This document shows, one piece after another, positions 25,493-60,649 of a stretch of 64,000 nucleotides of DNA. The stretch comes from Nitrospirota bacterium (GTDB lineage Bacteria; Nitrospirota; Thermodesulfovibrionia; Thermodesulfovibrionales; BMS3Bbin05). Position 1 is the first letter of the stretch; the number at the start of each line of letters is the position of its first letter. Both the position numbers and the translations under genes were made by a program. The notes under the pieces are model-generated. The model made no database searches. It was not told where the DNA came from and saw only the letters and a list, made by a program, of their open reading frames with translations. The DNA is taken from the NCBI GenBank assembly GCA_020351835.1, contig CP070669.1, positions 1,736,827-1,800,826 of the forward strand, in the 5' to 3' direction.

Positions 25493-25504
25493 AAGATCAG
25501 ACCC

Positions 25505-26467: not shown

Positions 26468-26468
26468 C

Positions 26469-27497: not shown

Positions 27498-27514
27498 ATA
27501 TCCTCCAGTCGTTC

Positions 27515-40363: not shown

Positions 40364-42232
40364 ATGGCTCTTTTTAATTACGCGACAAAAGAGATCACTC
40401 TCAAGATAGTCTATTACGGACCAGGCCTCAGCGGGAAAACCACTAATATTGAATATCTACACTCGACGTTTGATCCTAAAAGCAGGGGAAAGCTTCTTTC
40501 ATTGTCCACAGAAGCTGACAGGACCCTCTTCTTCGATTTCCTTCCTGTCGAGATAGGAAAGATAAAGGAGTTCTCGATACGGTTCCAGCTCTATACTGTG
40601 CCAGGACAGGTACGGTACAACTCTACAAGAAAGCTTGTATTAAAAGGTGCTGATGCAGTTGTATTCGTCGCCGATTCGCAGGAGGCAATGAAAGAGGCTA
40701 ATATCGAGAGCTATCAGAATATGAAGGAGAACCTTTTAGAGAATGGCCTTGATATCAATGATATCCCTATTGTGTATCATTATAATAAGCGTGATCTTCC
40801 GGATATCCAAAGTGTCGATGCTATTAGCAGGGACATTAATCCTAACGGAGCATCATTTTTCGAGGGTGTTGCTATAGAAGGAAAGGGAGTAGAGGAGGCT
40901 TTTCAGGCCGTAACAAAACAATTACTTAAGCATATAGCCAGGAAGCACCGCATTGATCTCTCTTCGAAGGAAACGATGTCAGTTGAAACGCCGTCATTGG
41001 TCGAAGAGGAGGTTATTGAGGAGCTATCGCCCCTGGAAGCCATTCATGCAGATGAAATGGGCATGGAAGCTGAGGAGACAGTCGAAGCTGGTATCTTTGA
41101 AGGTGAGGGCTCATCTTTGGAGGAACTTCATGCCGAAGTAGTAAGTGATATCGATGAAGATGAGGCAGTGGAAGCAGACATATTCGAACCGGGTACTGGA
41201 TCAGATGAGATCAATGACGTACCTTCACTTGAGGAACTTCAGGAAAAGATGGCCCGTGAGTTGGAGGATGATTCGACAGCGGATGCAGAGGCCGTCCTGT
41301 CAAAAGGAGCTGACTTTGAATATGAAGGTGAAGACGATGCATTCGTCCTTGAAGAACCTTCTATTGATGATACAGCTGGATCAAGTTTTGATGACGGATC
41401 AGATGACATAGATCTGGTGAGCTCTGAGTTCGATGATACACCTACCGAAACAATGGATGACCTGCAGGACCAGGAAGAGGTCATGGAGAGCTCAACTATC
41501 GAAGACAGGGATGAAGAGATGTCCTTTGAGATACCTGAAGAACCTGCTGAACAGGAACCTGACAATGTCATAGAAGAAGAGCCTGAGCAAGAGGATGAAT
41601 CTATTGAATCCATTTATAAGGCATTTATGACCGAAGAGGAGGAAGATACGGGTGATGTAGCCGAGTCAACGCCTGAGCCTGATTTCACTCCACCTCCCCC
41701 TATAGTTGAAAGTACTCCTGAAGTCAAACCTAGTCCTTCCGAAGAGATCGAGATCACACTTCCTGAAGGGTCCGAGGAAGAGGAACCGGCCTTTGAAGAA
41801 CCTGAAACTGAAGCAGTTGAGTCAGCTGAGTTCAATGACTTCAGTAGCGCTATATCCGAAATGGAGCGTGAGAAACCTGCACAAGATACCCGTTCTGAAA
41901 AGTTATCGCCTGTATCCGGGGAAACCGGCATATCTGAAGCAACAAGGAACGTTATCCTCGATGAGATCAACGCTCTTTCCAAGAGCGTAGGTAAAATGGG
42001 TAGTGCTATGTCTTCCTTTAAGTCCGAGCTTAGCGTACTGGCGGACAGGATAGCTGACATTGAAAAAAGCATATCTTCGATAAGTGAACAGGCGGACGAA
42101 ATAAAGGAAGCGGTCGAGAACGGATCGGCCAGTCCCGGGATGTTAACAAGCCAGACCCTCGAGACGATAATGCAGTTGAAAAGCAGTATAGATAAGGCAA
42201 AAAAGAAGAAGTTCTGGTTATTTTTCAGCTAG
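40364..42232 (+). CDS. MglA-like Ras-superfamily GTPase fused to a long acidic low-complexity C-terminal region
   Basis: The first roughly 190 aa closely follow the MglA pattern (KIVYYGPGLSGKTTN, STEADRTLFFDFLP, LYTVPGQVRY, YNKRDL). The remaining roughly 430 aa are D/E/S/P-rich. A coiled-coil-like end terminates in KAKKKKFWLFFS. Confidence 0.8.
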   Translation: MALFNYATKEITLKIVYYGPGLSGKTTNIEYLHSTFDPKSRGKLLSLSTEADRTLFFDFLPVEIGKIKEFSIRFQLYTVPGQVRYNSTRKLVLKGADAVVFVADSQEAMKEANIESYQNMKENLLENGLDINDIPIVYHYNKRDLPDIQSVDAISRDINPNGASFFEGVAIEGKGVEEAFQAVTKQLLKHIARKHRIDLSSKETMSVETPSLVEEEVIEELSPLEAIHADEMGMEAEETVEAGIFEGEGSSLEELHAEVVSDIDEDEAVEADIFEPGTGSDEINDVPSLEELQEKMARELEDDSTADAEAVLSKGADFEYEGEDDAFVLEEPSIDDTAGSSFDDGSDDIDLVSSEFDDTPTETMDDLQDQEEVMESSTIEDRDEEMSFEIPEEPAEQEPDNVIEEEPEQEDESIESIYKAFMTEEEEDTGDVAESTPEPDFTPPPPIVESTPEVKPSPSEEIEITLPEGSEEEEPAFEEPETEAVESAEFNDFSSAISEMEREKPAQDTRSEKLSPVSGETGISEATRNVILDEINALSKSVGKMGSAMSSFKSELSVLADRIADIEKSISSISEQADEIKEAVENGSASPGMLTSQTLETIMQLKSSIDKAKKKKFWLFFS

Positions 42233-44522: not shown

Positions 44523-45836
44523 CTAGCGTCCGAACGATATCAAAATGTATAGTCTGTTGATATTGTCCGGCTCGCTCAGTGCAGCCTCCCTGAAGTTCTC
44601 ATAAGTCCCTCTGTCCTGATCGGCCAATTGTATCTTACTTGCAGGAATATCGCTGTGCTCAAGAATGAAGTCCCTGATCCTTTCTTCACGCTTTGAATCA
44701 AGTTTAACATTCTCAGCCGTTACATTCGAATCAAATGAGTAACTTACTATATCAACACTTCGAACCTTCCTGTCGGATGCATATGATATCAACTGAAGAA
44801 GGAGATCGAAGGATTCGCTTACGATATCATCCGTACCTGCAGGAAAATGTATCATTAACTGAGCACCTTCATGGATAATATGAACCTTATCTCCTGATAT
44901 ATCTTCAAGCACTGCAGGGGGTGCCGCTATTACCGTAGGCACATCTTTGGTCATCTCGACATCTTCGATAACCACTGTGTCTTTGGTTATATCAGGCCGC
45001 GTTTCCTGCACAGCCATTTCCTGATCGCTTATCTCTTCGATGGTCTCTTCCTCTCTGATCACCTCAGGCCTGGTTTCCTTTGTAGCGATCACTTCATCCT
45101 CTATTAAACCTGCCTTCTCTACGGCCTCTTCAGCATCAGCTACAGGGACCTCACCGGAAACCTCTTCCTGCTTTATCCTTTCCTCTTCATCTTCATCATC
45201 ATAGTACCTGGCCAGTGGTTCACTGAAGCGGGTGGGCTCTTCCTCACCCGGTAAAGGTGAAAGCATGTCAAAGGCCATCATAATGCCTATCGTCCCACCA
45301 TAGTTATGCTCCCCTCCATCCACGGTATAATAATCATGAAAATCTATCTTTACCGAATAGGTTTCGTCTATGAAATACCTGAATCCTATCCCGCCATTAA
45401 CAGTGAACTTGCTCTCATTGTTCACAAGATCGGTGTTAAAATTTCCGCCACCTACACCAAGAGAGAGATATGGTACAAAATCCCTGTCAGAGAATGGATA
45501 TAATAAGGCACTCAGCGACAGGAAAGTAGCGTTCGGAACATTTGCGTCATAATCAAGCGTTGAAAGCAGTGACAACTCGATGCCGACATGCTCGTTAACA
45601 TTGTACCCCAGGTCCAATCTGCCGGAAAATCCGTCATCACTGCCCAGGTCTTCATCGATCATCATATAACCAAGCGAGAACCCTGCCTCACCCGTCTTAG
45701 CCCTAAGATCTGCATTACAATGGGCTACTTCTACAACCAGACTATAGATGACGAATAGTGCGATAAATAAGAACATGCGGCTATAGGATGTTCCCGCAAC
45801 ATAGCGACTAAATCTTCTAGAAATAAGGCTGGTCAT
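44523..45836 (-). CDS. OmpA-like outer-membrane protein: 8-strand-type beta-barrel, acidic linker and a divergent OmpA_C-like domain
   Basis: The N-terminal barrel pattern matches the paralog at 45985. The central region is E/D-rich. The C-terminus reads IHFPAGTDDI...SVDIVSYSFDS...KLDSKREERIRDFIL...NRLYILISF. The start is uncertain (Met1 or Met21). Confidence 0.6.
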   Translation of the reverse strand: MTSLISRRFSRYVAGTSYSRMFLFIALFVIYSLVVEVAHCNADLRAKTGEAGFSLGYMMIDEDLGSDDGFSGRLDLGYNVNEHVGIELSLLSTLDYDANVPNATFLSLSALLYPFSDRDFVPYLSLGVGGGNFNTDLVNNESKFTVNGGIGFRYFIDETYSVKIDFHDYYTVDGGEHNYGGTIGIMMAFDMLSPLPGEEEPTRFSEPLARYYDDEDEEERIKQEEVSGEVPVADAEEAVEKAGLIEDEVIATKETRPEVIREEETIEEISDQEMAVQETRPDITKDTVVIEDVEMTKDVPTVIAAPPAVLEDISGDKVHIIHEGAQLMIHFPAGTDDIVSESFDLLLQLISYASDRKVRSVDIVSYSFDSNVTAENVKLDSKREERIRDFILEHSDIPASKIQLADQDRGTYENFREAALSEPDNINRLYILISFGR

Positions 45837-45984: not shown

Positions 45985-46821
45985 GTGTCGATTATTATGA
46001 AAGTTAAACTTTTGATTATAGGCATCCTCACTTTCTTTCTGCCTTATTATCAGGCTGCAGAATGCGGTGCAAAGATACGGGAGATGACCGGAGAAGCAGC
46101 TATTTCGGTCGGATATATACTACTTGATGATGAGCTTGGAAGCAATGACCGCTTTTTCACCAGAATAGACCTCGGCGCAAATCTGACCCACAAGTGGGGC
46201 TTCGAGGTATCTCTCCTGAACTCTGTTCATTCACTTGCCAGGGTTCCTGACCTTACTTTCTATAATGTGAGTGCCGTATATCATATCATGGAAAAAGCTA
46301 ACAGATCCCCTTACGTTGTAATGGGCTTGGGGGCCGGTAATTTCAATACAGATAAGTTGAACAATGAGAGCAAGTTCAATGTCAGTGTTGGTGGTGGCGT
46401 TAAATGGTTCCTGGAAAGGGACCTGGCATATAAGATAGACCTTAGAGATCAAATAATCGCTGATGATCTTTCTCATAATATTACTGTATCTTTCGGCATA
46501 ATGTACCTTTTTGACCTGTTCGAGACGGAATCGCCATCAGTAATAGAAGAAGAGCCCGAACCTGAAGAAATGCCTGAACCAATAGAAGAAGTGCCGGCTG
46601 CACCTGTCGAAGAAGAAAAGGAACCTGAAGTAGTGATAGACATGCCGGAAGAGGAAGTTGTTTTTGAAGAAGTTCAGGACGCGGCTGAAGATGAGATAGT
46701 GATGCCTGAACCGGAAGAAGAGCCCGAAGAGGATGAAGAAGAACCTGAAGAAGTGCCTCCACCACCACCGCCGGTTAAGAAACGTGTGCCCGTTGAAGAG
46801 GAGAACAAATGGTTAAGGTGA
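45985..46821 (+). CDS. Outer-membrane beta-barrel protein paralog with a Glu/Pro-rich C-terminal tail
   Basis: It has a signal peptide and shares barrel blocks with 44523-45836 (TGEAAISVGY..DDELGS, GLGAGNFNTDKLNNESKFNVSVGGG, FGIMYLFD). The tail reads EEPEPEEMPEPIEE...PPPPPPVKK. Confidence 0.6.
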   Translation: MSIIMKVKLLIIGILTFFLPYYQAAECGAKIREMTGEAAISVGYILLDDELGSNDRFFTRIDLGANLTHKWGFEVSLLNSVHSLARVPDLTFYNVSAVYHIMEKANRSPYVVMGLGAGNFNTDKLNNESKFNVSVGGGVKWFLERDLAYKIDLRDQIIADDLSHNITVSFGIMYLFDLFETESPSVIEEEPEPEEMPEPIEEVPAAPVEEEKEPEVVIDMPEEEVVFEEVQDAAEDEIVMPEPEEEPEEDEEEPEEVPPPPPPVKKRVPVEEENKWLR

Positions 46822-46950: not shown

Positions 46951-47274
46951 ATGAAGAAGAACCGCATTCTAATAATAGCATTATCAATTTGTATCATTTC
47001 AATATCAGTCATTTACATGGCCGATGCTCCCGAAGGTGCAGATCTTTTCAGGAGCGAAGGGTGCATCGAATGCCATACTATCAATGGCCGGGGAGGAAAG
47101 ATAGGTCCGGACCTTACCTCTGTGACAGAAAGAAGAAGTGCCGGCTGGATCAAAGATCAGATCAAAGAACCTAGATCACATAATCCTTCTTCCCGGATGC
47201 CTGGTTTCAGCCATTTATCGTGGATGGAATTGCGTGCACTGACAGGGTATCTTAAGGAACACAACGGAAAGTGA
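46951..47274 (+). CDS. Membrane-anchored or secreted class I c-type cytochrome
   Basis: It has a single CIECH heme motif after an N-terminal hydrophobic segment. A distal Met candidate lies in SRMPGF. Confidence 0.75.
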   Translation: MKKNRILIIALSICIISISVIYMADAPEGADLFRSEGCIECHTINGRGGKIGPDLTSVTERRSAGWIKDQIKEPRSHNPSSRMPGFSHLSWMELRALTGYLKEHNGK

Positions 47275-47277
47275 TGT

Positions 47278-47544
47278 CTAGCCGGGAGGATCCTCTTCAG
47301 CAAGTTCCGCCTCTATCTCCTGCTTAACTTCCTCGACGATCGTGTCTATTACCTTTAATGATTCCCTGGCCATGTCACGCTCGACCTTCTGAAGCGCAAA
47401 TCCGGCATGTACAAGCACATAATCACCAACCTCGACCTCAACCGGCATAAGCATGAGGTTTATGTCCTTTCTGGCACCATAAACCTCTATCTTGGCTTTC
47501 ATACCGTCCATTTCGATTATCTTTGAAGGTATCGCGAGACACAC
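47278..47544 (-). CDS. hypC: Hydrogenase assembly chaperone HypC/HybG
   Basis: The N-terminus is MCLAIPSKIIEMDG, and the block GDYVLVHAGFAL is present. Confidence 0.9.
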   Translation of the reverse strand: MCLAIPSKIIEMDGMKAKIEVYGARKDINLMLMPVEVEVGDYVLVHAGFALQKVERDMARESLKVIDTIVEEVKQEIEAELAEEDPPG

Positions 47545-47551
47545 GGTCCGG

Positions 47552-48076
47552 TCAGCTCCTTTCCCAGAAGTTCTTCTGCATAGATGCCATCTCTTCTTCA
47601 GAGACCGGCTCAGGAACGTACCCGAGGGACTTCAGTTCATCTATAACAACATTCACAAGTTTCTCAAAACTGGCCTGGACCTCATCTGTCAGCTCAAGGC
47701 CCAGGGATATCTTTTTGGGTTCGACACCGAACAGTACCATATTCAAAGGCAGTTCATCGGATACGGTTGCCGCAGCCAGTACATCAGAAAGTCCAAGCTG
47801 GTGAGGAGATATCTTTGTCATGAACTTGGCCGGGACATCCTCCCCCTCCAGTCTGACTACAGTTCCGGGTTCTTTTCCGCACTTTAATGCGTCAATAATG
47901 ATCAGATGGTCCCTCTTACTGATATATGATAGAAGTTCGATACCGGAAGTACCCCCGTCAAGGAACTCGACATCATCACCGAACCTGTACCGTCTCTCTA
48001 TCTCATTAACGACCCTTACACCAACACTGTCATCGGTCATGAGCACATTTCCTACACCTAGAACTAGAACTTTCAA
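47552..48076 (-). CDS. hybD: Hydrogenase maturation endopeptidase (HybD/HyaD family)
   Basis: The blocks VLVLGVGNVLMTDDSVGVRV, IIIDA and HQLGL are present. Confidence 0.9.
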   Translation of the reverse strand: MKVLVLGVGNVLMTDDSVGVRVVNEIERRYRFGDDVEFLDGGTSGIELLSYISKRDHLIIIDALKCGKEPGTVVRLEGEDVPAKFMTKISPHQLGLSDVLAAATVSDELPLNMVLFGVEPKKISLGLELTDEVQASFEKLVNVVIDELKSLGYVPEPVSEEEMASMQKNFWERS

Positions 48077-48166: not shown

Positions 48167-49867
48167 TTAAACAGCCTTTACCTTTACTATCTCGTTATTG
48201 TTCTTATCGACAACATGAATAGCACACGCAAGGCACGGATCGAATGAGTGAACCGTCCTTAGCACCTCTAGCGGTTTCTTCGGGTCCTTTACCGGCGTCC
48301 CTATCAAAGCCGCTTCATAAGGACCAAGTGCGTCCTTGCTGTTCCTCGGTCCCGCGTTCCAGGTCGACGGAACAACCGCTTGATAGTTCTTGATCTTCCC
48401 GTTCTTTATAACTATCCAGTGGGACAATATGCCCCTAGGTGCCTCATGGAACCCATGTCCCATCTGCTCACCTGACGGAAATGTCGGAGCATTGAAAGTG
48501 GACACATCTCCCTTAGAGATGTTCTCTACAAGTGCTTCCCACTGTCCGACAAGTGTGTCGTAGAGTACGGCACACCTTATTGACCGGGCCCCTATCCTTC
48601 CGATCGTCGAATGCAGTGCTCCTACACCGACCTTTGTCTTGGCAAGAGAGCTGATAGTATCTAGCATGCTGTGGACATACTTCTGAGTGCCTTTGTGCCC
48701 CGCTGCATACATACAGAGCACATTAGCAAGCGGGCCCACCTGCGCCGGCTCGCCCTTGAAGGTAGGTGATTTTACCCAGGAGTATTTACCGTTGTCCTGA
48801 AAATCGGTATATTTTGGCTCCGTCTCCTCCTCAAAAGGATGTCGGTCCCAGTCTCCGTCATACCAGGAATGCTTGATGCTCTCCTTAACATTGTCCCTGA
48901 AGAATTTGTCCTGATAGCTCTTTATGGGCGTAAACTTACTTACATCACCGTTAGGGATATAACCACCCGGCAGGGCGAACTCAGTGCCCTTTGTATCCAT
49001 CGGCATATCAGGCGCCGAAAGATAGTTGACGACGCCCTTGCCATGACCGGTCCAGCCTGCATAAAATGCTGCAACGGCAGCGGTATCAACCAGCAACACG
49101 TTCTTTACAAAATCACCGGCCTTGTCTATCAGTGTCTTAATGTAATAGAGACGCTCCATGTTAAGCGTTGACTGACTGTCAAGGTTAATGGCATTTGCAA
49201 CGCCTCCGACAGCAACGTTCTGTATATGGGGTGTCTTTGAGCCGAGGATACCGACAACCTTGTTTATCTCACGCTGCTGCTCCAGGGCCTGCAGATAATG
49301 GTGAGCCGCCAGCATGTTCACTTCCGGGGGAAGTGTCATGGCCGGATGACCCCAGTATCCGCTTCCGTATACACCAAGCTGCCCCGAACCAACAAACGTC
49401 TTCAGTCTGTCCTGTGACTCTTTTACCGCCTGATAACTGTTGCCGGCCCATGATGAAAGAGACTGCCCCAGCTTAGCTGTAGCCTTGGCGTCAGCCTTCA
49501 AAGCAGAAACAATATCGACCCAGTCCAGGGCTCCGAGGTGATAAAAGTGTACAATGTGATCGTGAGTGGCATGAGCACCCATCATAAGGTTCCTTATATA
49601 CTGGGCATTAAGTGGTACCTCAAGACCCAGCGCATTTTCTACCGAACGCACAGAAGCCAGTGCGTGGACCGTAGTTCAGACGCCGCAGAAACGCTGGGTA
49701 AATATCCACGCATCCCTGGGGTCACGGCCCTTTAGGATGTTCTCTATCCCGCGCCACATCTGTCCCGATGACCATGCATTGGTCACCTTACCGCCTTCGA
49801 TCTCGCAGTCGATCCTGAGATGACCTTCGATCCTGGTGATAGGATCAATCGTTATTCTCTTTCCCAT
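48167..49867 (-). CDS. hybC: [NiFe]-hydrogenase large subunit (HybC type) with one in-frame TGA at 49676-49678, a putative selenocysteine
   Basis: The two track ORFs (49676-49885 and 48167-49651) are in the same frame, and only the TGA separates them. The joined product reads [23 protein letters not shown]...QRFCGV[TGA][16 protein letters not shown]...[15 protein letters not shown]. It is collinear with E. coli HybC as I recall it. A GGAGG SD precedes the ATG at 49867. Confidence 0.85.
49642..49669 (-). promoter_or_regulatory. Candidate SECIS-like hairpin downstream of the hybC TGA
   Basis: On the mRNA, UGA is followed by 10 nt and then ACGCAC-UGGCUUCU-GUGCGU (6-bp stem, 8-nt loop). The loop GG sits 21-22 nt from the U of UGA. 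Possible extra CC/GG pairs lie below a bulge. Confidence 0.4.
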
Positions 49868-49913: not shown

Positions 49914-51044
49914 TCAATGGGCCTCCTCCGGAAAAAGGTTCAGATATTTGACGGACACCTTGAACCCTAATATTGCAAATGCCACCATTCCGGCGGTAAG
50001 CGCAAACTCCATCCAGGATGGGAAGTAATCGACACCTGTCTTCCCCGCATAATCCGCAAGTCCGAACAGAGCTACGTTCATTCTGTTAAGGACTATACCA
50101 GCAATTACAAGCACATTGACCGAGAAAATACTTCTCATATTGCTTCTCCGATCCCTGGATATTAGCAGGATGAACGGGAGTATAACACCTATAACCATCT
50201 CGAGCAGATACATGTTAGAGGAGGTGCTCCCGGTAAATGCCATGCCTATCCCTGCAACGGTCACAAGGTCCCAGAGCTTCATTATGAGATACAAGGAAAC
50301 CGTGATCAATGAGCCTTTTGCAAGCCCGGAAAGGATATCCATATCAGGCTTGTGATTGAATACCCTTGTGCTTAGTATGGTCTCGAAGCTTACCATGGAC
50401 AGACCCATCAGAACTGCGGATACAAGAAAATGGTAAGGAAGCAAACTGCTATACCATAATGGCGAGAGCTTCGATGGTATTATCAGGTACACAGCACCCA
50501 AAGATGACTGGTGCAATGTCGACAGAAGCACGCCAAAAAGAACGACAGGGACCATTATCTTGTTCATGAAGTTCAACAGACCCGTCATCTTCAGTTTCTC
50601 GAATATCATCGGGCTGGACTCAGCCGCAAGTGTGCTCGTGTAAAGAACAACATGGATAGCAACTATGAACATGATAGAATTGACCTGCCACATCACCATT
50701 GGATGCCATATACGGAACGACTGGCCGATGTCAAGGAATATCGCTATGGCAGCAAGCAGGTAGCCAAAGAAAGCGTTCAAGACAGCCGGCCTGACGATCG
50801 GTTTATATTTCTTCCAGTTCAGGATATAGACCGCACCCGCTATTATGAATCCTCCGGCTGCCATTGCAACCCCTCCGAGGACATCAAAGGCGATCCAGAA
50901 ACCCCACGGCCATATCGAGTTAAGATTAGTTACCGCTCCGAGACCGAAGAACATACGGTACAGGGCAACAAGTCCACCGGCACCCATGATAAGAAGCAAG
51001 ACCGTTGTCGTCGGAGTCCACATCTTTATATCATTTTGGTTCAT
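49914..51044 (-). CDS. hybB: HybB-like integral membrane subunit (NrfD/PsrC family)
   Basis: It is 376 aa with about 10 hydrophobic helices. It lies between the hybA-like and hybC-like genes, as in the E. coli hyb operon. Confidence 0.82.
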   Translation of the reverse strand: MNQNDIKMWTPTTTVLLLIMGAGGLVALYRMFFGLGAVTNLNSIWPWGFWIAFDVLGGVAMAAGGFIIAGAVYILNWKKYKPIVRPAVLNAFFGYLLAAIAIFLDIGQSFRIWHPMVMWQVNSIMFIVAIHVVLYTSTLAAESSPMIFEKLKMTGLLNFMNKIMVPVVLFGVLLSTLHQSSLGAVYLIIPSKLSPLWYSSLLPYHFLVSAVLMGLSMVSFETILSTRVFNHKPDMDILSGLAKGSLITVSLYLIMKLWDLVTVAGIGMAFTGSTSSNMYLLEMVIGVILPFILLISRDRRSNMRSIFSVNVLVIAGIVLNRMNVALFGLADYAGKTGVDYFPSWMEFALTAGMVAFAILGFKVSVKYLNLFPEEAH

Positions 51045-51048
51045 ATGG

Positions 51049-52053
51049 TCATTCCTCCTTATCCGCTTTCTTATTTCTGCTCGTTATAGCCCATGTTCCA
51101 GCGCCAACCAGAAGCACTCCGACTATAACGGCCGGTATCTTCGATATGTATGCCCAGGTAAGGTCAGGAAGGAAGGTCTCATCAACATTCTTATGGAACC
51201 CGAGCAGATCAAAGGGGACACCGGCAAGCATCATATACTGAGTTCCTCCGGCCTCCTTCGCCCCGTAAATATGGTTAAGGTACTTTGAGACAGGCCTTCT
51301 CATCTTCTCACCGGAATCTACCTTTTGCACGGGATAGTCATATTCCTGCCCAGGCTTGAGCTCCAGCCTCTTCTGGGCCTCGACCTTGAGGTCTGCAACC
51401 TTACCGAATATCGACGCCCCGGTAGGGCAGAACTCGCAGCAAGCCGAGAACGAACCTTCTTTTATCCTGTGACGGCAAAGCTGGCATTTTCTGACCTGAG
51501 GAAAGGCCTTTTCATATTCGTATTGAGGGACCCTGAAAGGACATGCAAGCATGCAATACCTGCAGCCGATACACCTGTCCTCTTCGTAATAAACGATACC
51601 GTTGTCGGGGTCCTTCTTGAGAGCTGCGACCGGACATACAGAAACACAGGTAGGAGCTATACAGTGAAGACAGTGCTGCTTGATAAAGGAATAGCCGTTC
51701 TCAGCGCTGTCCTTGTTCTCTCCCGTGCCGCTCCTGTGGACCCTGATCACATTAAGTGTCTTTGAAGAAAGTGCCTTCGGTGCGTCCCATATCTCCTGAG
51801 GGGTCCTGAACTCGTATGGCGGGTCCGTTGCGCCTTTGGAGTAAAGAGCACCTCCTTCCACACTATTGAACTGCTTGCAGTTGTACATGCATGACTTACA
51901 TCCGATGCACAAAGTTGCGTCGTAAAGAATCCCCACAGCTTCCGGAGGAAGTTCCCTTGGCATGGATGCATCGGCAGGCCGCGCACCGGACGACAGTACA
52001 AGGCTGCCGCCGACAACTGCAGTCTTTAAGAAATCCCGCCTGTTGATATCCAT
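51049..52053 (-). CDS. hybA: HybA-like periplasmic 4x[4Fe-4S] ferredoxin subunit with a Tat signal and a C-terminal TM anchor
   Basis: The Tat signal is MDINRRDFLKTAVVGG. Multiple CxxCxxCxxxCP clusters are present (CIGCKSCMYNC, CLHCIAPTCVSVCP, CIGCRYCMLACP). The C-terminus is hydrophobic. Confidence 0.88.
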   Translation of the reverse strand: MDINRRDFLKTAVVGGSLVLSSGARPADASMPRELPPEAVGILYDATLCIGCKSCMYNCKQFNSVEGGALYSKGATDPPYEFRTPQEIWDAPKALSSKTLNVIRVHRSGTGENKDSAENGYSFIKQHCLHCIAPTCVSVCPVAALKKDPDNGIVYYEEDRCIGCRYCMLACPFRVPQYEYEKAFPQVRKCQLCRHRIKEGSFSACCEFCPTGASIFGKVADLKVEAQKRLELKPGQEYDYPVQKVDSGEKMRRPVSKYLNHIYGAKEAGGTQYMMLAGVPFDLLGFHKNVDETFLPDLTWAYISKIPAVIVGVLLVGAGTWAITSRNKKADKEE

Positions 52054-52056
52054 TAC

Positions 52057-53181
52057 CTACTCCTCCTTATCTTGTTTTTCATCATCCTTCTTGCCCAGAC
52101 CTGTAAGCATAGCCGCACCTGCCGCGCCTATCGCTACACCGGCCACTCCTGTAGCAAGTGACTTTATGCCTGATGAAGCGCCTTCTTTGCCCGGCAATAC
52201 TTCATCGAACAGAGCCGGCGGCGTAATATACTTCGGCCTTGCCGGGGAGTGGAGCGGAAGAGTAAAACCGACTCCCTTCTCAGTACATCCGAAGCAGGGG
52301 TGTCCGGTTCCGACCGGCCATGCTCCTGCTCCGATATCATTGAAAAGAATGACCGGACAGTTAGCGTGTGTCTCCGGCCCTTTACATCCCAGCTTATACA
52401 AACAGTACCCTTTTCTGTGCCCCTCGTCCCCGAACTGATTAGCGAACCTTCCGGCATCGAAATGAGGACGGCGCTCGCAGTTCTCATGTATCAGCCTTCC
52501 ATATGCGAACTTTGGCCTTCCCTGGTCATCGAGTTCAGGAAGCTTCTTCAGGGTCAGGAAATACAGCACTGTTGAGAGGAAATTATACGGATTGGGTGGA
52601 CATCCCGGTATATTAATAACAGGGGTCTTGATCCCTTTGTTCTTTAGAACCTCATGAGCAGGTGTAGCACCTGTCGGGTTCGGATCAGCCGAAGGAACTC
52701 CGCCCCACGATGCACAGGATCCGATCGCAATTACGGCTGCCGCTTTTGATCCCATATCCTCAAGGATGGACTGGACCGTCTGGCCACCTATCTTGCAGTA
52801 AATACCGCCATCCTTTACAGGTATTGAACCGTCAACTACCAGGATATACTTACCTTCGTTCTCCTTCATTGACTTCAAACGCGCTTCTTCCGCTTGATGG
52901 CCTGAACCTGCATTAAGGGTCTCATGATAGTCCAGTGATATCAACTCAAGAATAAGTTTCTCAAGGGTCGGGTGGTTAGTCCTGAGAAGTGTTTCTGTAC
53001 ATCCTGTGCACTCCTGAGCGGACAGCCAGAGGACGGGCGGACGTTTCGGACTTGAAGCGGCCTCAGCTATCCTCTCTCCCATACTGACCGGAAGTCCGAG
53101 AGTTACAGCAACTCCGGTACAGAACTTCACAAAGTCTCGTCTGGACACTCCCTGCTTTTCGATCACAGACATAAAATCCAT
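52057..53181 (-). CDS. hybO: [NiFe]-hydrogenase small subunit with a Tat signal
   Basis: I placed the start at the ATG at 53181, which has an AAAGGAGG SD. The Tat signal is SRRDFVKFCTG. The blocks WLSAQECTGCTES-like, GSCASWGG and PGCPPNP are present. Confidence 0.92.
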   Translation of the reverse strand: MDFMSVIEKQGVSRRDFVKFCTGVAVTLGLPVSMGERIAEAASSPKRPPVLWLSAQECTGCTETLLRTNHPTLEKLILELISLDYHETLNAGSGHQAEEARLKSMKENEGKYILVVDGSIPVKDGGIYCKIGGQTVQSILEDMGSKAAAVIAIGSCASWGGVPSADPNPTGATPAHEVLKNKGIKTPVINIPGCPPNPYNFLSTVLYFLTLKKLPELDDQGRPKFAYGRLIHENCERRPHFDAGRFANQFGDEGHRKGYCLYKLGCKGPETHANCPVILFNDIGAGAWPVGTGHPCFGCTEKGVGFTLPLHSPARPKYITPPALFDEVLPGKEGASSGIKSLATGVAGVAIGAAGAAMLTGLGKKDDEKQDKEE

Positions 53182-53582
53182 ACGTACCTCCTTTTCGCAC
53201 ATTTAACGAACGAACTTCTTTCCCTTATTTAAAAAAATCAACTAATCGTTAGAACCCCTCCTGAGACAATGTATTATTTTTATATACCGCTAATAATTAC
53301 ATATAATATTTTATATGTCAATAAGGAATTTTGATAAGCAATATTCATACCACAGCACTGTGCCATAACGAATTATTTAACTAGTTGATCTACAAAATAA
53401 ATTCTTGCGATCAGAACGCTGTCAGGACATGGATAACAAGTCTTATTTGTGTATTTTCGTAACGCCTCGGGACGCTATTATTCAATTTGATTTAAGCAAT
53501 GAATATTTTGTACCATGAATGCACACTTTTGCTCCAGGGAAGTGTTTCTCACCGTCTATAATTCTATGCCGGAGGTAACTGA

Positions 53583-55574
53583 ATGAACAAGCGCTTTGAC
53601 GAACTCTGTATCAATACCCTTAGAATGCTTTCTGCAGATGCCGTCCAGAAGGCCAATTCCGGACATCCCGGGATGCCAATGGGAGATGCCGCCATGGCAT
53701 ATACTCTATGGACAAAATTCCTGAAGCACAATCCAAAGAACCCTCACTGGCATAACAGGGACAGGTTCATACTTTCCGCCGGTCACGGTTCAATGCTTCT
53801 GTACAGCCTTTTGCATCTCACTGGTCACAATATTTCAATGAAAGACATTAAGAATTTCAGGCAGTTAGGCAGCAAGACCCCGGGTCATCCCGAGCACGAC
53901 CTGGACAGCGGTATAGAGACAACGACAGGCCCTCTCGGGCAGGGTTTCGCAACAGGGGTTGGGATGGCAGTAGCCGAAAAGTATCTTGCAGAGATGTTCA
54001 ATAAGCCGGGATTCAGTATCATTGATCACTATATATATGCCATATGCAGTGACGGAGACCTGATGGAAGGCATATCTCATGAAGCGGCTTCCTTTGCCGG
54101 CCATTTCGGCCTCGGAAAGCTCATCTATCTTTACTCTGACAATAAGATATCGATTGACGGTTCCACAGACCTTACCTTTACCGAGAACGTAGCTTCACGT
54201 TTCCGTGCCTATAACTGGCATGTTCAGAAAGTCGATGGTAATGACGTTCAAGAAGTAGCCTCTGCAATAAGAGAAGCACAAAAGGAGTCCGGTAAACCTT
54301 CTATGATCATAGCGAGAACACATATTGGTTACGGCAGTCCTAATAAGCACGATACCTCCGGTGTTCATGGATCACCCCTCGGAGAAGAGGAGCTTAAATT
54401 AACAAAAGAGAACCTTGGATGGCCTTTAAAGAAGTTCTATGTGCCGCCTGAAGTGCTCTCACATTTCCGCAAGGCGGTTGATAAAGGGAAGAAGGCAGAG
54501 GAGCAGTGGAAAGAGAAGTTCAAGAAATACAGGAAGAAGTATCCCAAGCTTGCGAAGCAGTGGAATATGATGGTCAAGCGTAATGGAACAGATCACAAAA
54601 AATATTTCCCCTCCTTCAAACCCTCTGACGGACCTCTTGCTACAAGAAGTGCTTCGGGCAAAATACTTAACAGTATTGCTGACCATATCCCTCATCTCCT
54701 TGGAGGATCAGCTGACCTGGCCCCGTCCAACAATACATACCTGAAGGACTACCCGGAGTTCGGATCGAAAAAAGGAGGAAGGAACTTCCATTTCGGCGTT
54801 AGAGAACATGTGATGGGGGCTATTTTGAACGGTATGGCTCTGAGCAATATGCTCATTCCTTATGGAGGAACGTTCTTTGTCTTTACGGACTATATGAGAT
54901 CCTCAATGCGAATTTCGGCTCTTACAGGAGCACATGTCATATATATTCTCACACATGACTCAGTAGGACTTGGTGAGGATGGGCCAACGCACCAGCCTAT
55001 AGGTCACCTGACCAGTATGAGAGCGATGCCCAACATGTCCCTTATCAGGCCGGCAGATGCGAATGAAACATCGGTCGCATGGCAGGTAGCTCTGGAACAG
55101 AAGGACAGGCCATGCTCGCTGATACTTACGCGCCAGAAGCTCCCTGTTATCGACAGGAAGAAATATGCTTCTGCCAGCCTCATAAGAAAAGGCGGTTACA
55201 TACTTGCGGATTGTAAGGGCAAACCCCGCATCATTATTATTGCTTCAGGTTCTGAAGTACACCTCGCCCTTGAAGCGTTCGAGAGGCTTTCCGCTGAAGG
55301 TCACAGAGTGAGAGTGGTCAACATGGCCTCGTTCGATCTTTATGAAAGGCAATCAGGAGCATATAAGGATAATGTCCTGCCCCCTGATATCGAGAACAGG
55401 ATAGCCATCGAGGCAGGACACACGCTTAGCATGTATAAGTATGTCGGACTTAAAGGAGACGTTATCGGGATCGACAGCTTTGGAGCTTCTGCTCCGGCTA
55501 AGGACCTCTTCAAGAAGTTCGGGATAACGACGGACAACCTTGTAAGACGTGTCAGAACAATGCTCAAGGGGTAA
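53583..55574 (+). CDS. tkt: Transketolase
   Basis: The blocks [26 protein letters not shown] and [16 protein letters not shown] are present. The protein is 663 aa. Confidence 0.95.
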
Positions 55575-55578
55575 CGTA

Positions 55579-56043
55579 ATGAAAATAGCAATAGGTGCCG
55601 ACCATGGAGGTTTTTTGCTTAAGGAAGCGTTAAAGCCATACCTGGTCCAGGCAGGCCATACCGTCATAGATGTAGGCGCTCCATCTGATGAGCCATCCGA
55701 CTATCCGGATATTGCCGCCATGGTCGCGCAGAAGGTCATGAGAGCTGACTCTGACAGAGGCATAGTTATATGCGGAAGCGGTGTGGGAGCGTGCGTTGCG
55801 GCTAATAAGTTCCCGCGTATCAGGGCTTCAGTATGCCATGACACCTATTCAGCGCATCAGGGTGTAGAACATGACGACATGAACGTGCTTTGCCTGGGTG
55901 CAAGGATAATCGGAGAGGCACTTGCAAAGGATATTGTATCATCGTTTATCTCGGCAAAATTCGCCGCAGATGTAGAAAGGTACAAGAGAAGACTTGATAA
56001 GGTACTTGACATCGAGAGGCGATTCAGCGCCGACAATACCTGA
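55579..56043 (+). CDS. rpiB: Ribose-5-phosphate isomerase B
   Basis: I trimmed the start to MKIAIGADHGGFLLKEALK. The block ICGSGVGACVAANK is present. Confidence 0.92.
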   Translation: MKIAIGADHGGFLLKEALKPYLVQAGHTVIDVGAPSDEPSDYPDIAAMVAQKVMRADSDRGIVICGSGVGACVAANKFPRIRASVCHDTYSAHQGVEHDDMNVLCLGARIIGEALAKDIVSSFISAKFAADVERYKRRLDKVLDIERRFSADNT

Positions 56044-56057
56044 TACCATAGGACATA

Positions 56058-56852
56058 TTATCCCCCCGCAGGTCTCTTCTGCCTTTTTCTGAGCCTTACG
56101 ATAATGAATATGCCGGCAGCTATCATGGCACTGCATAGCATCTGACCCATCGTCAAGGTTCCAAAGATCAATCCTATCTGGGGATCAGGCTCGCGAAAGA
56201 ACTCTATTATGAACCTGAATATCCCGTAGAAGATAAGGAAGAACGGCATCATCAGACCATCAGCTCTTATTCTGTCCTTGAGTATCCACAGTATAGCGAA
56301 AAGAACAGGTCCCTCAAGGAAAGCCTCATATAGCTGTGAGGGATGCCTCGGCAAATTACCACCCTCAGGGAATATCATGGCCCATGGGACATCGGTCACT
56401 CTCCCGAACAGTTCACCGTTAATGAAGTTGCCGATCCGGCCGAACATAAGGCCTACAGGTCCTGTAACCGTTACCATGTCAGCCATGACCGCAAGGTTCA
56501 GGTCCCTTCTCTTTACGAATATCACTCCGCAGATAACCGCCCCTATCAGACCGCCGTGAAATGACATCCCACCATGCCAGACGGCAAAGATGTCAAAAGG
56601 GTTCTTTATATAGAAAGAAAGATTGTAAAAGATAACATAACCCAGACGCGCACCCAGTATTAGCCCTATGATCATGTAGAAATATAGCGACTCGATGACA
56701 TCTTTGGATATTCCAAGGCCCTTTTTCTTGATCTGCTTTCTGACTAGCAGGTATGAACCTACAAAGCCAAATAAGTACATCAGTCCGTACCATCTGACCT
56801 GAATAGGTCCTATCTCGAAGATATACGGCCTGATGTTAGGAAATTCTATCAT
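56058..56852 (-). CDS. lgt: Prolipoprotein diacylglyceryl transferase
   Basis: I trimmed the start to MIEFPNIRPYIFEIGPIQVRWYGLMY. The blocks GGMSFHGG, GRIGNFINGELFG and HPSQLYE are present. Confidence 0.9.
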   Translation of the reverse strand: MIEFPNIRPYIFEIGPIQVRWYGLMYLFGFVGSYLLVRKQIKKKGLGISKDVIESLYFYMIIGLILGARLGYVIFYNLSFYIKNPFDIFAVWHGGMSFHGGLIGAVICGVIFVKRRDLNLAVMADMVTVTGPVGLMFGRIGNFINGELFGRVTDVPWAMIFPEGGNLPRHPSQLYEAFLEGPVLFAILWILKDRIRADGLMMPFFLIFYGIFRFIIEFFREPDPQIGLIFGTLTMGQMLCSAMIAAGIFIIVRLRKRQKRPAGG

Positions 56853-56978
56853 GAAAAATATTTTACTGTTTTCATGCTGTAAATGTGTATCATGCCTTAC
56901 TTTATTATATAAATGGATTGTGATACTATTTAGATTATTTACCGGGTATTTTTCTAAAACTGCTTTTGGAGGCAATTC

Positions 56979-57884
56979 ATGAAACTTGCTATTATCGGTC
57001 TGGGCAAAATGGGGATGAACATGGCTAAGCGCCTCCTCCGTAACAAGATAGAGGTAGTGGCTTTTAACAGAACATCCCGGAAAACAGAGCAGATCGAACA
57101 AGAAGGAGCTATCGGGGCCTATTCTCTTGAAGAAGTGATCAATAAGACAGGCTCACCAAGGATAATCTGGCTGATGTTGCCGGCGGGAAAAGCAGTAGAT
57201 GAATACATCGAACGCCTCGCCGATATGATGAGTGACGGAGATATCATCATTGACGGTGGCAACTCTTTCTATAAAGACTCTGTCAGAAGACACGATTTTC
57301 TTTATTCCAAAGGTATCAGGTTCATTGATGCCGGTATAAGTGGCGGTGTATGGGGACTTGAAGCAGGTTATTGCACTATGGTAGGTGGTGACATCAAGAC
57401 CTACAAATATCTTGAGCCTGTGTTCAGAGCTCTCGCTCCCAAGCATGGATATATGTACTGCGGCGCGACCGGCGCGGGCCATTATACAAAAATGGTCCAT
57501 AACGGTATAGAATACGCCATGATGCAGTCCTATGCCGAAGGATTCGAGATACTTAAATCCTCTCCCTACAGGGAATCATTGAACTTCGCTGATCTGTCAC
57601 GACTGTGGAACCAGGGTAGCGTCATAAGATCGTGGTTGCTCGAGCTACTCGAAAGGGCTTTTGCAGATGATGATGATCTGTCCGACATAGAAGGTTATGT
57701 AGAAGACTCCGGTGAAGGCCGCTGGACCGTCCAGGAGGCTATAGACCTGGATGTCCCCGCAGAGGTTATCCTTATGTCGTTGTTCAAAAGGTTCCGCTCC
57801 AGGCAGTCAGCTCCTTATAGTGACAAGGTGATAGCGGCCCTGCGTAACCAGTTCGGTGGACATAGCGTAAAAAAGAGATCCTGA
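56979..57884 (+). CDS. gnd: 6-phosphogluconate dehydrogenase, short (about 300 aa) decarboxylating form
   Basis: The blocks MKLAIIGLGKMGMNMAKRL, DGGNS, GAGHYTKMVHNGIEY and GEGRWT are present. Confidence 0.88.
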   Translation: MKLAIIGLGKMGMNMAKRLLRNKIEVVAFNRTSRKTEQIEQEGAIGAYSLEEVINKTGSPRIIWLMLPAGKAVDEYIERLADMMSDGDIIIDGGNSFYKDSVRRHDFLYSKGIRFIDAGISGGVWGLEAGYCTMVGGDIKTYKYLEPVFRALAPKHGYMYCGATGAGHYTKMVHNGIEYAMMQSYAEGFEILKSSPYRESLNFADLSRLWNQGSVIRSWLLELLERAFADDDDLSDIEGYVEDSGEGRWTVQEAIDLDVPAEVILMSLFKRFRSRQSAPYSDKVIAALRNQFGGHSVKKRS

Positions 57885-57973
57885 CATTTGTCCGGGAGAG
57901 CTATGCATGAATTTATCCGGGCAAATCTGCATAATATCAGTACTTCGCATTTTCAATATATTAGGAGGTAACA

Positions 57974-59110
57974 ATGTCTGACAATCCGCTGGTAGGGCTG
58001 TTGAAACTCGGCCAAAGTTTCTGGTACGACAATATTAGCAGGGACCTGATAGGCTCCGGTGAGCTCAAAAGGATGATAGATGAGGATGGGATGAGAGGTG
58101 TTACCTCTAATCCAAGTATCTTTTTCAAGTCCATAAAGGGCAGCGATGTCTATGATGAACAGCTGAGGTCATTCCCGCCTGACAACGGCATGTCTGACAA
58201 GGATGTTTTCTACGAGCTTGCTATAAAGGACATTCAGGATGCAGCGGACCTGTTGTTGCCCGTTTACCAGGAGAGTAAGGGTTCTGACGGTTTCGTCAGC
58301 ATGGAGGTGGACCCTTCCTTTGCATACAAGATAAAGGAAACTATCAAAGAGGCAGAGGAATTGTATTCACGAATAAAGAGGCCCAACCTGATGATAAAGG
58401 TCCCTGCTACCAAGGAAGGCCTCTTTGCCCTTACTGAGCTGATATCAAAAGGGATCAACGTAAATGTGACACTCCTTTTCTCGGTTAAACGGTATGAGGA
58501 GGTGACACATGCATATTTACAGGGGCTTGAAAAGAGGCTTCAGAGCGGTGAAGCTATTGGTAATATCAGTTCGGTGGCAAGCTTCTTCGTAAGCAGGGTG
58601 GATAGCCTGACAGATAAACTTCTAAGCGAAGTTATATCGTCAGACGACCCCGATGACGACAAGAAAAAGGCAAAGGCACTGCTTGGCAAGACAGCCGTAG
58701 CGAACGCCAAGATAGCTTACCAGGTGTTCAAGAACGTATTTTCTCATGACAGGTACATGAAGCTAAAGAAGGAAGGAGCCAGTGTCCAGCGCCTCTTATG
58801 GGCCAGTACAAGCACAAAAAGCCCTGAGTACAGTGACCTCCTCTATGTTGACAGTCTTATAGGTCCATCTACGGTCAATACCATGCCGCCCAATACACTT
58901 GTTGCGTTCAGGGACCACGGCAAGCTGGAGAGAACGGTAGACAGGGACATAGATGATGCCTATAAAGTGCTGAACGAACTTGAGGAGCTTGAGATCAATA
59001 TAGAGCAGATAACCGAGGACCTTGAGGACGAAGGCGTACGACTGTTCAGAGAGGCATTTGATTCTTTAATATCACTCATAGGAGAAAGGAGACAGGTGCT
59101 GAGCAAATGA
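57974..59110 (+). CDS. tal: Transaldolase (long subtype)
   Basis: The blocks [20 protein letters not shown] and the active-site Lys region LMIKVPAT are present. Confidence 0.9.
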
Positions 59111-60639
59111 ACGAAGGTCCGGCGAGTAACACCGCTTGTGCTATAGAAACCATCAAAGATCCGTTCTGCATAGTTATCTTTGGGGCTTCTGGTGACCTGA
59201 CAAGAAGAAAGCTGATCCCATCACTTTATAGATTATATATCAACGGTATACTACCGGATAATTTCCTGATCGTTGGCACGGCTCGGAGCGATATGACCGA
59301 CAAAGCGTTCCGGAACCTGACAAAGGACTGGCTTGAGAAGGAAGGCAAGAAGGACTTTGACAGAAAAAGGTGGAACAGTTTCTCCGAGAGGATCTACTAT
59401 AAAAGCGTTCAATATGATGACCCCGGGACTTTCAAGTCCCTTGAGGAACATATCTCGGCCCTGGAAGCAAAGCACGGCACTTCGGGTAACCTGATCTTCC
59501 ATCTTGCTACACCTCCGCATCTCTATGAGTCGATAATAGACAATATAGGTTCATCAAATCTCCAGTTCTCACATGGAGGGTTTACTAGGATAGTAATAGA
59601 AAAGCCGTTCGGAAGGGACGTTGAGACAGCAAAGGCACTGAACTCACACCTTCTTAAGTATTTCAAGGAGGAGCAGATATTCAGGATCGACCACTACCTT
59701 GGCAAGGAAACGGTACAGAACATCCTCCTTTTCCGGTTTGCCAACTCCATAGTTGAACCGCTCTGGAACCGTAATTACGTAGATCACGTTCAGATCACTG
59801 TAGCAGAAACTCTCGGCATAGGCCACAGGGCAGGATACTATGATAGTGCGGGGGTTCTCAGAGATATGTTCCAGAACCATATGCTCCAGCTGCTTGCTTT
59901 GATAGCGATGGAACCGCCAAGTGTTTATGACTCGAGACATGTCCGGGATGAAAAGGTTAAGGTCCTGCAGGCTTTAAGACCTTTAAGCAGGGAAGTGCTC
60001 TCCAGTCAGTTCGTGCTCGGACAGTACGGAGAAGGACAGATAGACGGTAACAAGGTAACATCATACAGGAACGAAAGTGGGATCGACCCCCGGTCCAACA
60101 CGGCCACATTTGCTGCAGCTAAGATCTTTATCGACAACTGGAGATGGCAGGATGTCCCATTCTTTATAAGGACAGGGAAAAGGCTTAACAAGAGAATATC
60201 CGAGATCTCAGTGCATTTCAAGAACGCGCCGAACCATATGTTCAGTAACCACCCCGTCGATGTAACACCTAACGTCCTTTCATTCATCATTCAGCCTGAA
60301 GAGGAGATCGTGTGGGGCATTCAAACGAAGGTCCCCGGATCTAAGCTATGCCTAAGAGATGCCGGGCTCCGCTTCAATTACCGGGATCACTATTCATTTC
60401 TGTCACTTGACGCTTATGAGAGAGTGCTCATCGACTGCATCATGGGCGATCAGCTCCTTTTTGTTCGTCACGACGGCATTCAAACTACATGGGAATTTCT
60501 CAAGCCTGTCCTGGATTCTATTGATGGAGGTCCGGGAGCACCTTTTGAAGTACATGGATACAGGTCCGGATCATGGGGTCCTGACGCTTCTGATGAACTT
60601 ATCGGTCAGGAGGGCCGGGCATGGAAGAGCATGGCATGA
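59107..60639 (+). CDS. zwf: Glucose-6-phosphate 1-dehydrogenase
   Basis: The blocks [22 protein letters not shown] and [11 protein letters not shown] are present. The start forms an ATGA overlap with tal. Confidence 0.93.
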
Positions 60640-60649
60640 ATAATCCGTT

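Follow-up and report, generated by a model that had tools for sequence, protein, structure and literature searches.

An in-frame UGA at the nickel-iron bridging cysteine of a Hyb-type hydrogenase from Nitrospirota, best explained as a selenocysteine codon

Why would a hydrogenase gene with a complete set of partner genes carry a stop codon exactly where a ligand to the active-site metals should be encoded? The question is raised by a hybC-type large-subunit gene in a stretch of 64,000 nucleotides (nt) from a Nitrospirota bacterium (assembly GCA_020351835.1, contig CP070669.1, positions 1,736,827 to 1,800,826); the whole stretch is called the window here, and positions are counted from its first letter. 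A preliminary description of this DNA, made from the letters alone, proposed that the TGA at codon 64 is a selenocysteine (Sec) codon. Comparison with relatives backs this proposal: the best explanation, and very probably the right one, is that UGA64 is read as Sec by insertion directed by SelB and a selenocysteine insertion sequence (SECIS), because the TGA is conserved across lineages and is followed by a hairpin that is confined to Sec-type genes and is under strong synonymous constraint there. The two features on which the argument turns are:

48167 to 49867, minus strand: hybC-type large subunit, 566 codons with the UGA read through (Pfam NiFeSe_Hases on both pieces; alignment with PDB chain 6EN9_L)
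49676 to 49678, minus strand: in-frame UGA, codon 64, predicted selenocysteine codon, at the position of HybC Cys64, the second Cys of RxCGxC

The plus strand reads TCA at 49676-49678, that is, TGA on the minus strand, in frame with a gene that starts at an ATG at 49867 (with GGAGG 6 nt upstream) and ends with a TAA at 48167. In the list of open reading frames (ORFs) the gene appears as two ORFs of 69 and 494 amino acids (aa), which share one frame and are split only by the TGA; both match Pfam NiFeSe_Hases, the first over profile positions 1-25 and the second over 36-508. The closest solved structure is the E. coli hydrogenase-2 (Hyd-2) large subunit HybC (6EN9_L, E 3e-235), and the top PDB matches are all large chains of E. 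coli or Citrobacter Hyd-2. The alignment with HybC is gap-free over the first 460-odd residues and places codon 64 on HybC Cys64 within QRICGVCTTTHAL; the local sequence, RFCGV-UGA-TTVH, puts the UGA at the last position of an N-terminal CXXU motif. In standard [NiFe] enzymes this second Cys of the N-terminal RxCGxC bridges Ni and Fe (Evans et al., 2021, PMC8020662). The C-terminus reads DPCLACAIH followed by a 15-residue tail, so both C-terminal ligands are cysteines and the site cut by HybD is preserved. On all these points the preliminary description was accurate: it had joined the two ORFs across the TGA, had placed the codon on the bridging Cys by alignment with E. coli HybC, and had listed the DPCLAC motif, the cleavable tail and the partner genes hybO, hybA, hybB, hybD and hypC as intact, as the Pfam and NCBIfam matches and the translations show them to be. 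It was also right that UGA has not been reassigned throughout the genome: TGA is the stop of 19 of the 55 long ORFs in the window, among them hybA, hybB and hybD of the same operon, which excludes genome-wide recoding. A scan of TGA-joined ORF pairs in the window turned up no further credible selenoprotein candidate.

Is the TGA an accident of a single genome? The comparison set consists of 84 related loci from species-representative genomes which, with the window, make 85 genes. At the codon-64 column TGA is found in 21 of the 84 (22 of 85 with the window), in L001-L015, L017-L019, L021, L026 and L028, which come from Thermodesulfovibrionales/Nitrospirota, Desulfobulbales, Desulfobacterales, Desulfobacca and other metagenome-assembled genomes (MAGs). 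The remaining 63 have TGC or TGT; the in-frame UGA therefore aligns with a Cys of its homologs at a metal-ligand site, as in selenoproteins. The two kinds of gene are called Sec-type and Cys-type below. The same TGA is present in a separate NCBI assembly, GCA_975955985.1 (L159), from a strain 98.8% identical over 3.6 kb. The trace of such genes is also visible among proteins: 19 of the best 120 database hits are clusters of exactly 494 aa, all truncated at this site (P0050, P0055, P0065, P0066, P0084 and others), and some clusters contain up to 56 member sequences. When five of the 494-aa clusters were inspected as DNA, all five showed a 63-aa ORF, a TGA and a 494-aa ORF inside an intact hyb operon.

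Sec-type genes are otherwise in good order. Each of the 22 has exactly one in-frame stop and keeps DPCLAC as its C-terminal motif; the 21 that are complete to the stop codon are 566-571 codons long, and for the remaining one (L028) the contig breaks off past DPCLAC, with 559 codons present. Within the main clade of 16 genes, nonsynonymous divergence (dN) from the window gene is 0.03-0.10 over codons 1-63 and 0.08-0.20 over codons 65-566, while synonymous divergence (dS) is at least 0.95 or saturated. Saturated dS values, returned as -1 by the NG86 method, make mean dN/dS ratios meaningless; hence the dN values and the saturation itself are used. The preliminary description had held a dead pseudogene to be unlikely and had named further disruptions in relatives as the sign that would speak for one. 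None was found, and the shared TGA, the single stop in each gene and the low dN on both sides of it bear that judgment out; the comparison of homologs at this column, which it had also proposed, gave the 21 TGA and 63 TGC or TGT loci described above.

Conservation of a stop codon does not by itself say how the ribosome gets past it. What would direct Sec insertion here? In bacterial selenoprotein genes the signal lies within the coding sequence, and a candidate is found just downstream of the UGA:

49646 to 49665, minus strand: predicted SECIS upper stem-loop, ACGCAC-UGGCUUCU-GUGCGU, starting 10 nt past the UGA (-8.4 kcal/mol, z-score -3.0)

Most relatives form an 8-base-pair (bp) stem with a GCUU tetraloop, ACGCAC(UG)-GCUU-(CA)GUGCGU (-11.9 kcal/mol, z-score -4.6); the loop is UGGCUUCU in the window and GCUU in the relatives, and a G occupies position 1 or 2 of the apical loop, as expected of a SECIS. 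The stem begins 10 nt from the UGA and the loop lies at about +20. This spacing and the loop G match the minimal fdhF SECIS of E. coli. They also agree with the bacterial SECIS consensus quoted by Takano et al. (2026, PMC13582414).

That this RNA element matters is indicated by the loss of synonymous freedom in the codons that form it. Among 16 Sec-type orthologs, codon pairs for the same amino acid differ in 55.5% of cases over the whole gene and in 7% of cases in codons 68-74, which rank first of 560 seven-codon windows for synonymous constraint in the Sec clade. These codons encode HALASVR, with His always CAC, Ala GCA, Val GUG and Arg CGU. In four Cys-type gene sets the same codons are unremarkable, ranking 126-448 of about 560. 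When metagenomes were scanned for the hairpin with any base allowed at the third position of the preceding codon (TGN), 74 contigs were recovered, every one of them with TGA. Across these contigs the 54 nt after the codon occur in 55 distinct versions; because a single clade accounts for all the contigs, shared ancestry explains some of the linkage between TGA and hairpin.

Several observations pull the other way and have to be set against these. RNAalifold, applied to 59 distinct sequences, returns the 8-bp stem and no compensatory covariation; six of the eight pairs are invariant, which is why covariation is absent, and the hairpin is supported by conservation instead. Pair 7 is U-A in 53 sequences, U.G in five and U.U in one, the window, whose hairpin is the weakest variant of all: Ser72 is encoded by UCU instead of UCA or UCG, which creates the U.U mismatch and gives -8.4 rather than -11.9 kcal/mol. 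The UCU variant is also present in the 98.8%-identical strain of GCA_975955985.1 (L159, positions 821-840). The minimum free energy of the 54 nt after the codon is equal in the two kinds of gene (-17.2 kcal/mol in Sec-type and -17.8 kcal/mol in Cys-type, p 0.85). Folding energy was accordingly rejected as a discriminator, since the conserved peptide, together with the higher GC content of Cys-type genomes, leads to hairpins in any event, and the test of synonymous constraint was used in its place. A search of Rfam gave no family match at the gathering threshold. A lower stem (CNAC/GUNG), judged by eye, pairs in some sequences only, and no claim is made for it. Finally, selA, selB, selD and a gene for tRNA-Sec were not found in the 64-kb window or in the flanks of 78 related loci. 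These genes need no linkage to a hydrogenase operon, so their absence near hyb loci is uninformative; and complete selA/B/C/D sets were present in all of the selC*-containing genomes examined by Mukai et al. (2016, PMC5389517), Thermodesulfovibrio isolates included, which is counted here as competence for Sec at the level of the lineage.

If UGA64 is decoded, must the inserted residue be Sec? The main residual alternative accepts a genuine SelB-type site but supposes that cysteine is inserted there, always or when Se is scarce, by a tRNA-Sec-like tRNA-Cys(UCA) (selC*/tRNA-ReC), so that the mature enzyme would be an ordinary all-Cys Hyb hydrogenase. Such tRNA genes do occur in Thermodesulfovibrio, Thermodesulfobacteria and delta-proteobacteria, lineages that carry the gene discussed here, and opal suppression with Cys has been shown (Mukai et al., 2016, PMC5389517); all the sequence evidence above fits Cys insertion equally well, an inherent limit of Sec hydrogenase calls made from sequences (Takano et al., 2026, PMC13582414). 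What makes this explanation unlikely is its cost: an expensive UGA with its SECIS is hard to reconcile with the plain TGC used by many sister lineages, and the repeated retention or gain of a UGA, in four lineages, points to some advantage of selenium. Neither the window nor the flanks of the related loci showed a selC* gene, although none would be expected there.

Less probable still is a split gene or read-through without Sec. The gene could be split into two products, 63 aa and a 494-aa protein begun at an internal GTG, and gene callers do annotate these two ORFs in every assembly, the longer one starting with GTG; or the UGA could be read through by a near-cognate tRNA, e.g., that for Trp. 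The GTG is the codon for Val73, lies within the hairpin and has no Shine-Dalgarno sequence. A product begun there would lack residues T65-S72, including the invariant His68 of CxxCxxxH, and these residues are conserved nonetheless. In the 16 Sec-type orthologs, codons 65-67, which follow the UGA but precede the first codon at which translation could restart, change at synonymous sites and preserve their amino acids. They must therefore be translated, and an enzyme made of two polypeptides is ruled out. The 63-residue fragment would also stop just before the fourth ligand, leaving Ni with three. As for read-through, a Trp in the position of a bridging ligand seems chemically implausible. Lastly, a nonsense mutation in a dying gene or a miscalled TGC or TGT in a Cys-type gene, to which a bare in-frame stop in an otherwise standard gene and a window devoid of Sec machinery might point, is hardly credible and is effectively refuted by the comparative sequence data: the same TGA recurs in 21 other genome loci, in 74 metagenome contigs and in the independent assembly of the 98.8%-identical strain, none of the 22 genes has a further disruption, dN is low on both sides with synonymous sites saturated, the partner genes are all intact, and the hairpin is constrained in Sec-type genes only.

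Decoding of UGA64 as Sec would then proceed as follows. The stem-loop within the coding sequence, 10 nt past the UGA, with 6-8 bp and a G-containing apical loop, would act as a SECIS and recruit SelB with Sec-tRNA(Sec) to the ribosome before release factor 2 terminates translation; decoding of UGA64 by this complex would yield the full-length large subunit of 566 residues. In the folded enzyme a selenolate would take the place of the bridging thiolate of the N-terminal RxCGxC (RxCGxU), forming a Ni-(mu-Se)-Fe bridge, while the C-terminal DPCxxC ligands would stay cysteines. Maturation by HypC and cleavage by HybD would otherwise run as in Hyd-2, as would electron transfer from HybO to HybA, HybB and the quinone. 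The hairpin is thus expected to be bound by SelB and the protein to hold Se rather than S, possibly with consequences for catalysis; that a Sec at the bridging position is chemically viable is indicated by the activity of the engineered E. coli Hyd-1 variant C79U (Evans et al., 2021, PMC8020662).

Did this arrangement arise once? In a neighbor-joining tree of the large subunits, a simple distance tree which cannot settle the direction of Sec/Cys changes, the window gene falls within a main Sec-type clade of Nitrospirota, Desulfobulbales and Desulfobacterales. Three further Sec-type lineages stand beside Cys-type sisters: L014/L017 (sisters L016/L035), L026 (L023/L031) and L015/L019 (L020). Each has a hairpin of its own about 20-45 nt past the TGA, with a G at loop position 1 or 2:

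L014/L017 hairpin: CUGACCUC-GGU-GAGGUCAG
L026 hairpin: UGGCCUC-GGC-GAGGUCA
L015/L019 hairpin: CUCGGUC-CGGGC-GAUCGAG

L020, the Cys-type sister of L015/L019, lacks a counterpart of their hairpin (z-score +0.68). On this sequence evidence, either Sec was gained several times, or an ancestral Sec gave way to Cys again and again while the SECIS turned over. The window gene probably belongs to a widespread natural clade of Hyb-type uptake hydrogenases, periplasmic enzymes of Nitrospirota and Desulfobacterota that have a Ni-Fe selenolate bridge (RxCGxU). In this clade, Cys and Sec would have replaced each other several times, every Sec-type lineage having a SECIS of its own; such a history would imply a selective advantage of bridging Se.

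Two residues, Y167 (49369-49367, minus strand) and I201 (49267-49265, minus strand), at first sight accompany Sec: in the genome set Y167 is present in 21 of 22 Sec-type and two of 63 Cys-type genes, and I201 in 21 of 22 and four of 63. They were rejected as co-adaptations to Sec since Y167 is also found in 27 of 95 closer Cys-type proteins, and are regarded as lineage markers. Separately, three of the related loci carry a second [NiFe] large-subunit gene, of another group, less than 10 kb from the hyb operon (L013 at about 5745, L020 at about 13044 and L050 at about 19713), with the motif RICGICPWxHH or RLCGICPVSHH.

To what class of enzyme would the Sec-type subunit contribute? The large-subunit gene sits in an operon that runs hybO-hybA-hybB-hybC-hybD-hypC on the minus strand, with the following partners:

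52057 to 53202, minus strand: hybO, [NiFe] hydrogenase small subunit with the twin-arginine translocation (Tat) signal SRRDFVKF (Pfam Oxidored_q6 and NiFe_hyd_SSU_C)
51049 to 52053, minus strand: hybA, 4Fe-4S ferredoxin-type electron-transfer subunit, stop TGA (NCBIfam HybA, 365 bits, cut-off 263; Pfam Fer4_11)
49914 to 51044, minus strand: hybB, NrfD-type integral membrane (quinone-reducing) subunit, stop TGA (Pfam NrfD)
47552 to 48076, minus strand: hybD, maturation endopeptidase that removes the C-terminal tail of the large subunit, stop TGA (Pfam HycI; TIGR00140)
47278 to 47544, minus strand: hypC/hybG-type chaperone for large-subunit maturation (Pfam HupF_HypC; NCBIfam hypC_hupF, 78 bits, cut-off 48)

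The large subunit is closest to Hyd-2 by PDB matches, the best NCBIfam models of both hydrogenase subunits are those of hydrogenase 2, and the partners are a HybA ferredoxin-type and a HybB NrfD-type membrane subunit in place of a cytochrome b. By homology and operon structure, the operon encodes a Hyb-type (Hyd-2-like) uptake [NiFe] hydrogenase, predicted to be Tat-exported, membrane-anchored and quinone-linked. The NCBIfam scores show how far it has diverged. For hybO the top model, "hydrogenase 2 small subunit", scores 484 bits where the equivalog cut-off is 659; hybB reaches about 283 bits with "Ni/Fe-hydrogenase cytochrome b subunit" and with HmcC, short of the cut-off in both cases; and hybD scores 158.1 bits (cut-off 151.8) against the subfamily model TIGR00140 (hupD; HyaD/HybD family maturation endopeptidase). 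Among the Hyd-2-type comparisons, cut-offs are passed only by HybA (NF008134) and by the subfamily models TIGR00391 (small-subunit hydA) and TIGR00140, whereas scores stay under the cut-off for the Hyd-2 equivalogs of HybD and of both hydrogenase subunits, and for the model that the HybB-like subunit matches. With most Hyd-2 equivalog scores under the cut-off, the enzyme is to be seen as a distant ortholog of E. coli Hyd-2, from Nitrospirota; Thermodesulfovibrionales/Nitrospirota MAGs are the nearest genomes, with 82-89% identity at the protein level.

The surroundings of the operon are varied. Just beyond hypC lie a small 107-aa cytochrome c ORF (46951-47274, plus strand; annotation from the gene table of L159) and divergent outer-membrane beta-barrel paralogs (44523-45836, minus strand, and 45985-46821, plus strand). 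Directly upstream of the hyb operon, and divergent from it, is a pentose-phosphate cluster (53583-61399, plus strand) with genes for transketolase, RpiB, a 6-phosphogluconate dehydrogenase-like protein, transaldolase, glucose-6-phosphate dehydrogenase and 6-phosphogluconolactonase, a run broken by an ORF for lgt (prolipoprotein diacylglyceryl transferase; 56058-57101, minus strand). Farther away, heme-biosynthesis genes hemY (protoporphyrinogen oxidase), hemH (ferrochelatase) and hemE adjoin a radical SAM/SPASM protein gene (24125-28594, minus strand). A 622-aa ORF (40364-42232, plus strand) has only a weak N-terminal match to small GTPases of the Ras family and matches neither SelB nor any other family. 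Four ORFs of 178, 218, 204 and 179 aa (916-2779 and 3605-4144, minus strand) have no Pfam match and lie among MlaD-like and MlaE-like genes; they may be unrecognized parts of an Mla-type lipid transport cluster.

Why should the position of one Se atom matter? In all biochemical and structural work on [NiFeSe] hydrogenases (O2 tolerance, high rates of H2 production, maturation), Se is a terminal Ni ligand that belongs to the C-terminal motif; natural bridging Se has so far been listed from sequences ("purported" in the words of Evans et al., 2021) or made artificially (Hyd-1 C79U). If UGA64 indeed encodes Sec, the enzyme would have a bridging-Se chemistry that is uncharacterized in any native enzyme and differs from the terminal-ligand Se of all [NiFeSe] hydrogenases studied. 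The comparison of loci and contigs shows that the predicted Sec-type Hyb hydrogenases are real and conserved, and that they are often met with in anoxic sediments, soils and groundwater. Since gene callers split their genes into 63-aa and 494-aa ORFs, metagenomic surveys of hydrogenases mis-annotate or under-count them. The well-understood Hyb/Hyd-2 scaffold, with close Cys-type sisters as controls, would make a natural system in which to study the role of bridging Se.

How does the putative Sec-type enzyme compare with known hydrogenases? Its nearest relative of known structure, E. coli Hyd-2 (HybOABC, Group 1c; PDB 6EN9/6EHQ), shares the gene order hybO-hybA-hybB-hybC-hybD with a HypC-type chaperone, the Tat signal on the small subunit, the C-terminal DPCxxC-x2-H and the cleavable tail, and differs in having Cys64 where the window gene has UGA. 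Canonical [NiFeSe] enzymes (Group 1a HysAB of Desulfovibrio and Desulfomicrobium; Group 3 Fru/Vhu of methanococci) likewise have Sec for one of the four Ni-ligating Cys, and in the bacterial ones its codon is a UGA served by a SECIS within the reading frame. However, their Sec comes first in the C-terminal DPUxxC and is a terminal Ni ligand; the window gene has DPCLAC at its C-terminus and its predicted Sec at the second residue of the N-terminal motif, bridging Ni and Fe. Canonical enzymes also use soluble cytochrome c3 rather than HybA/HybB (Evans et al., 2021, PMC8020662). Judged by profile scores (230 bits against a cut-off of 780 for the HysA model, and 252 against 470 for the NiFeSe small-subunit model), the window gene lies outside the canonical Group 1a [NiFeSe] family.

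A Sec at the equivalent N-terminal bridging position of a Group 1 enzyme has been made in the laboratory. E. coli Hyd-1 C79U retains 13% of native activity, the highest of four Cys-to-Sec variants; its apparent Km for H2 is reduced, but its O2 tolerance is no greater (Evans et al., 2021, PMC8020662). Unlike the window gene, it is artificial, being encoded by a UAG codon decoded via EF-Tu, without a SECIS, and its scaffold, an O2-tolerant Group 1d enzyme, has no evolutionary history of Se at that site. The suggestion in the preliminary description that an N-terminal, bridging Sec might be an undescribed active-site variant was therefore too strong on one count already, given this engineered equivalent and the "purported" natural examples mentioned beside it. 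As cited by Evans et al. (2021, PMC8020662), from Baltazar et al. (2011), those natural cases of bridging Sec are placed at C579, in the C-terminal site. As cited by Takano et al. (2026, PMC13582414), the same study listed two Group 1 and one Group 3 sequences with an N-terminal CXXU and a predicted bridging Sec. The two citations of Baltazar et al. (2011) are thus discordant, C-terminal motif in one and N-terminal CXXU in the other. The literature search, which Baltazar et al. (2011) lay outside, found no description of a Sec enzyme of Hyb type or Group 1c and no biochemistry of a natural bridging-Sec hydrogenase.

The closest parallel in nature is found in Group 4, the only group with a systematic CXXU dataset: 47 enzymes have Sec solely in the N-terminal motif, and 27 of these are CXXU (Takano et al., 2026, PMC13582414). 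They resemble the window gene in the position within the motif and the predicted bridging Sec, in resting on in silico evidence that includes a SECIS-like hairpin with a loop G at position 1 or 2, and in a mosaic of Sec and Cys forms within an unchanged gene cluster (Takano et al., 2026, PMC13582414). The enzymes themselves are different: those of Group 4 are energy-converting, multi-subunit and cytoplasm-facing, whereas the window gene, with its Group 1 Hyd-2 homology and periplasmic, Tat-exported architecture, falls outside Group 4 and would encode part of a periplasmic Hyb-type uptake hydrogenase. With CXXU known from Group 1 and Group 3 sequences and from 27 Group 4 enzymes, an N-terminal bridging Sec is rare but already described from sequences, and the Hyb-type gene of the window is not new in kind.

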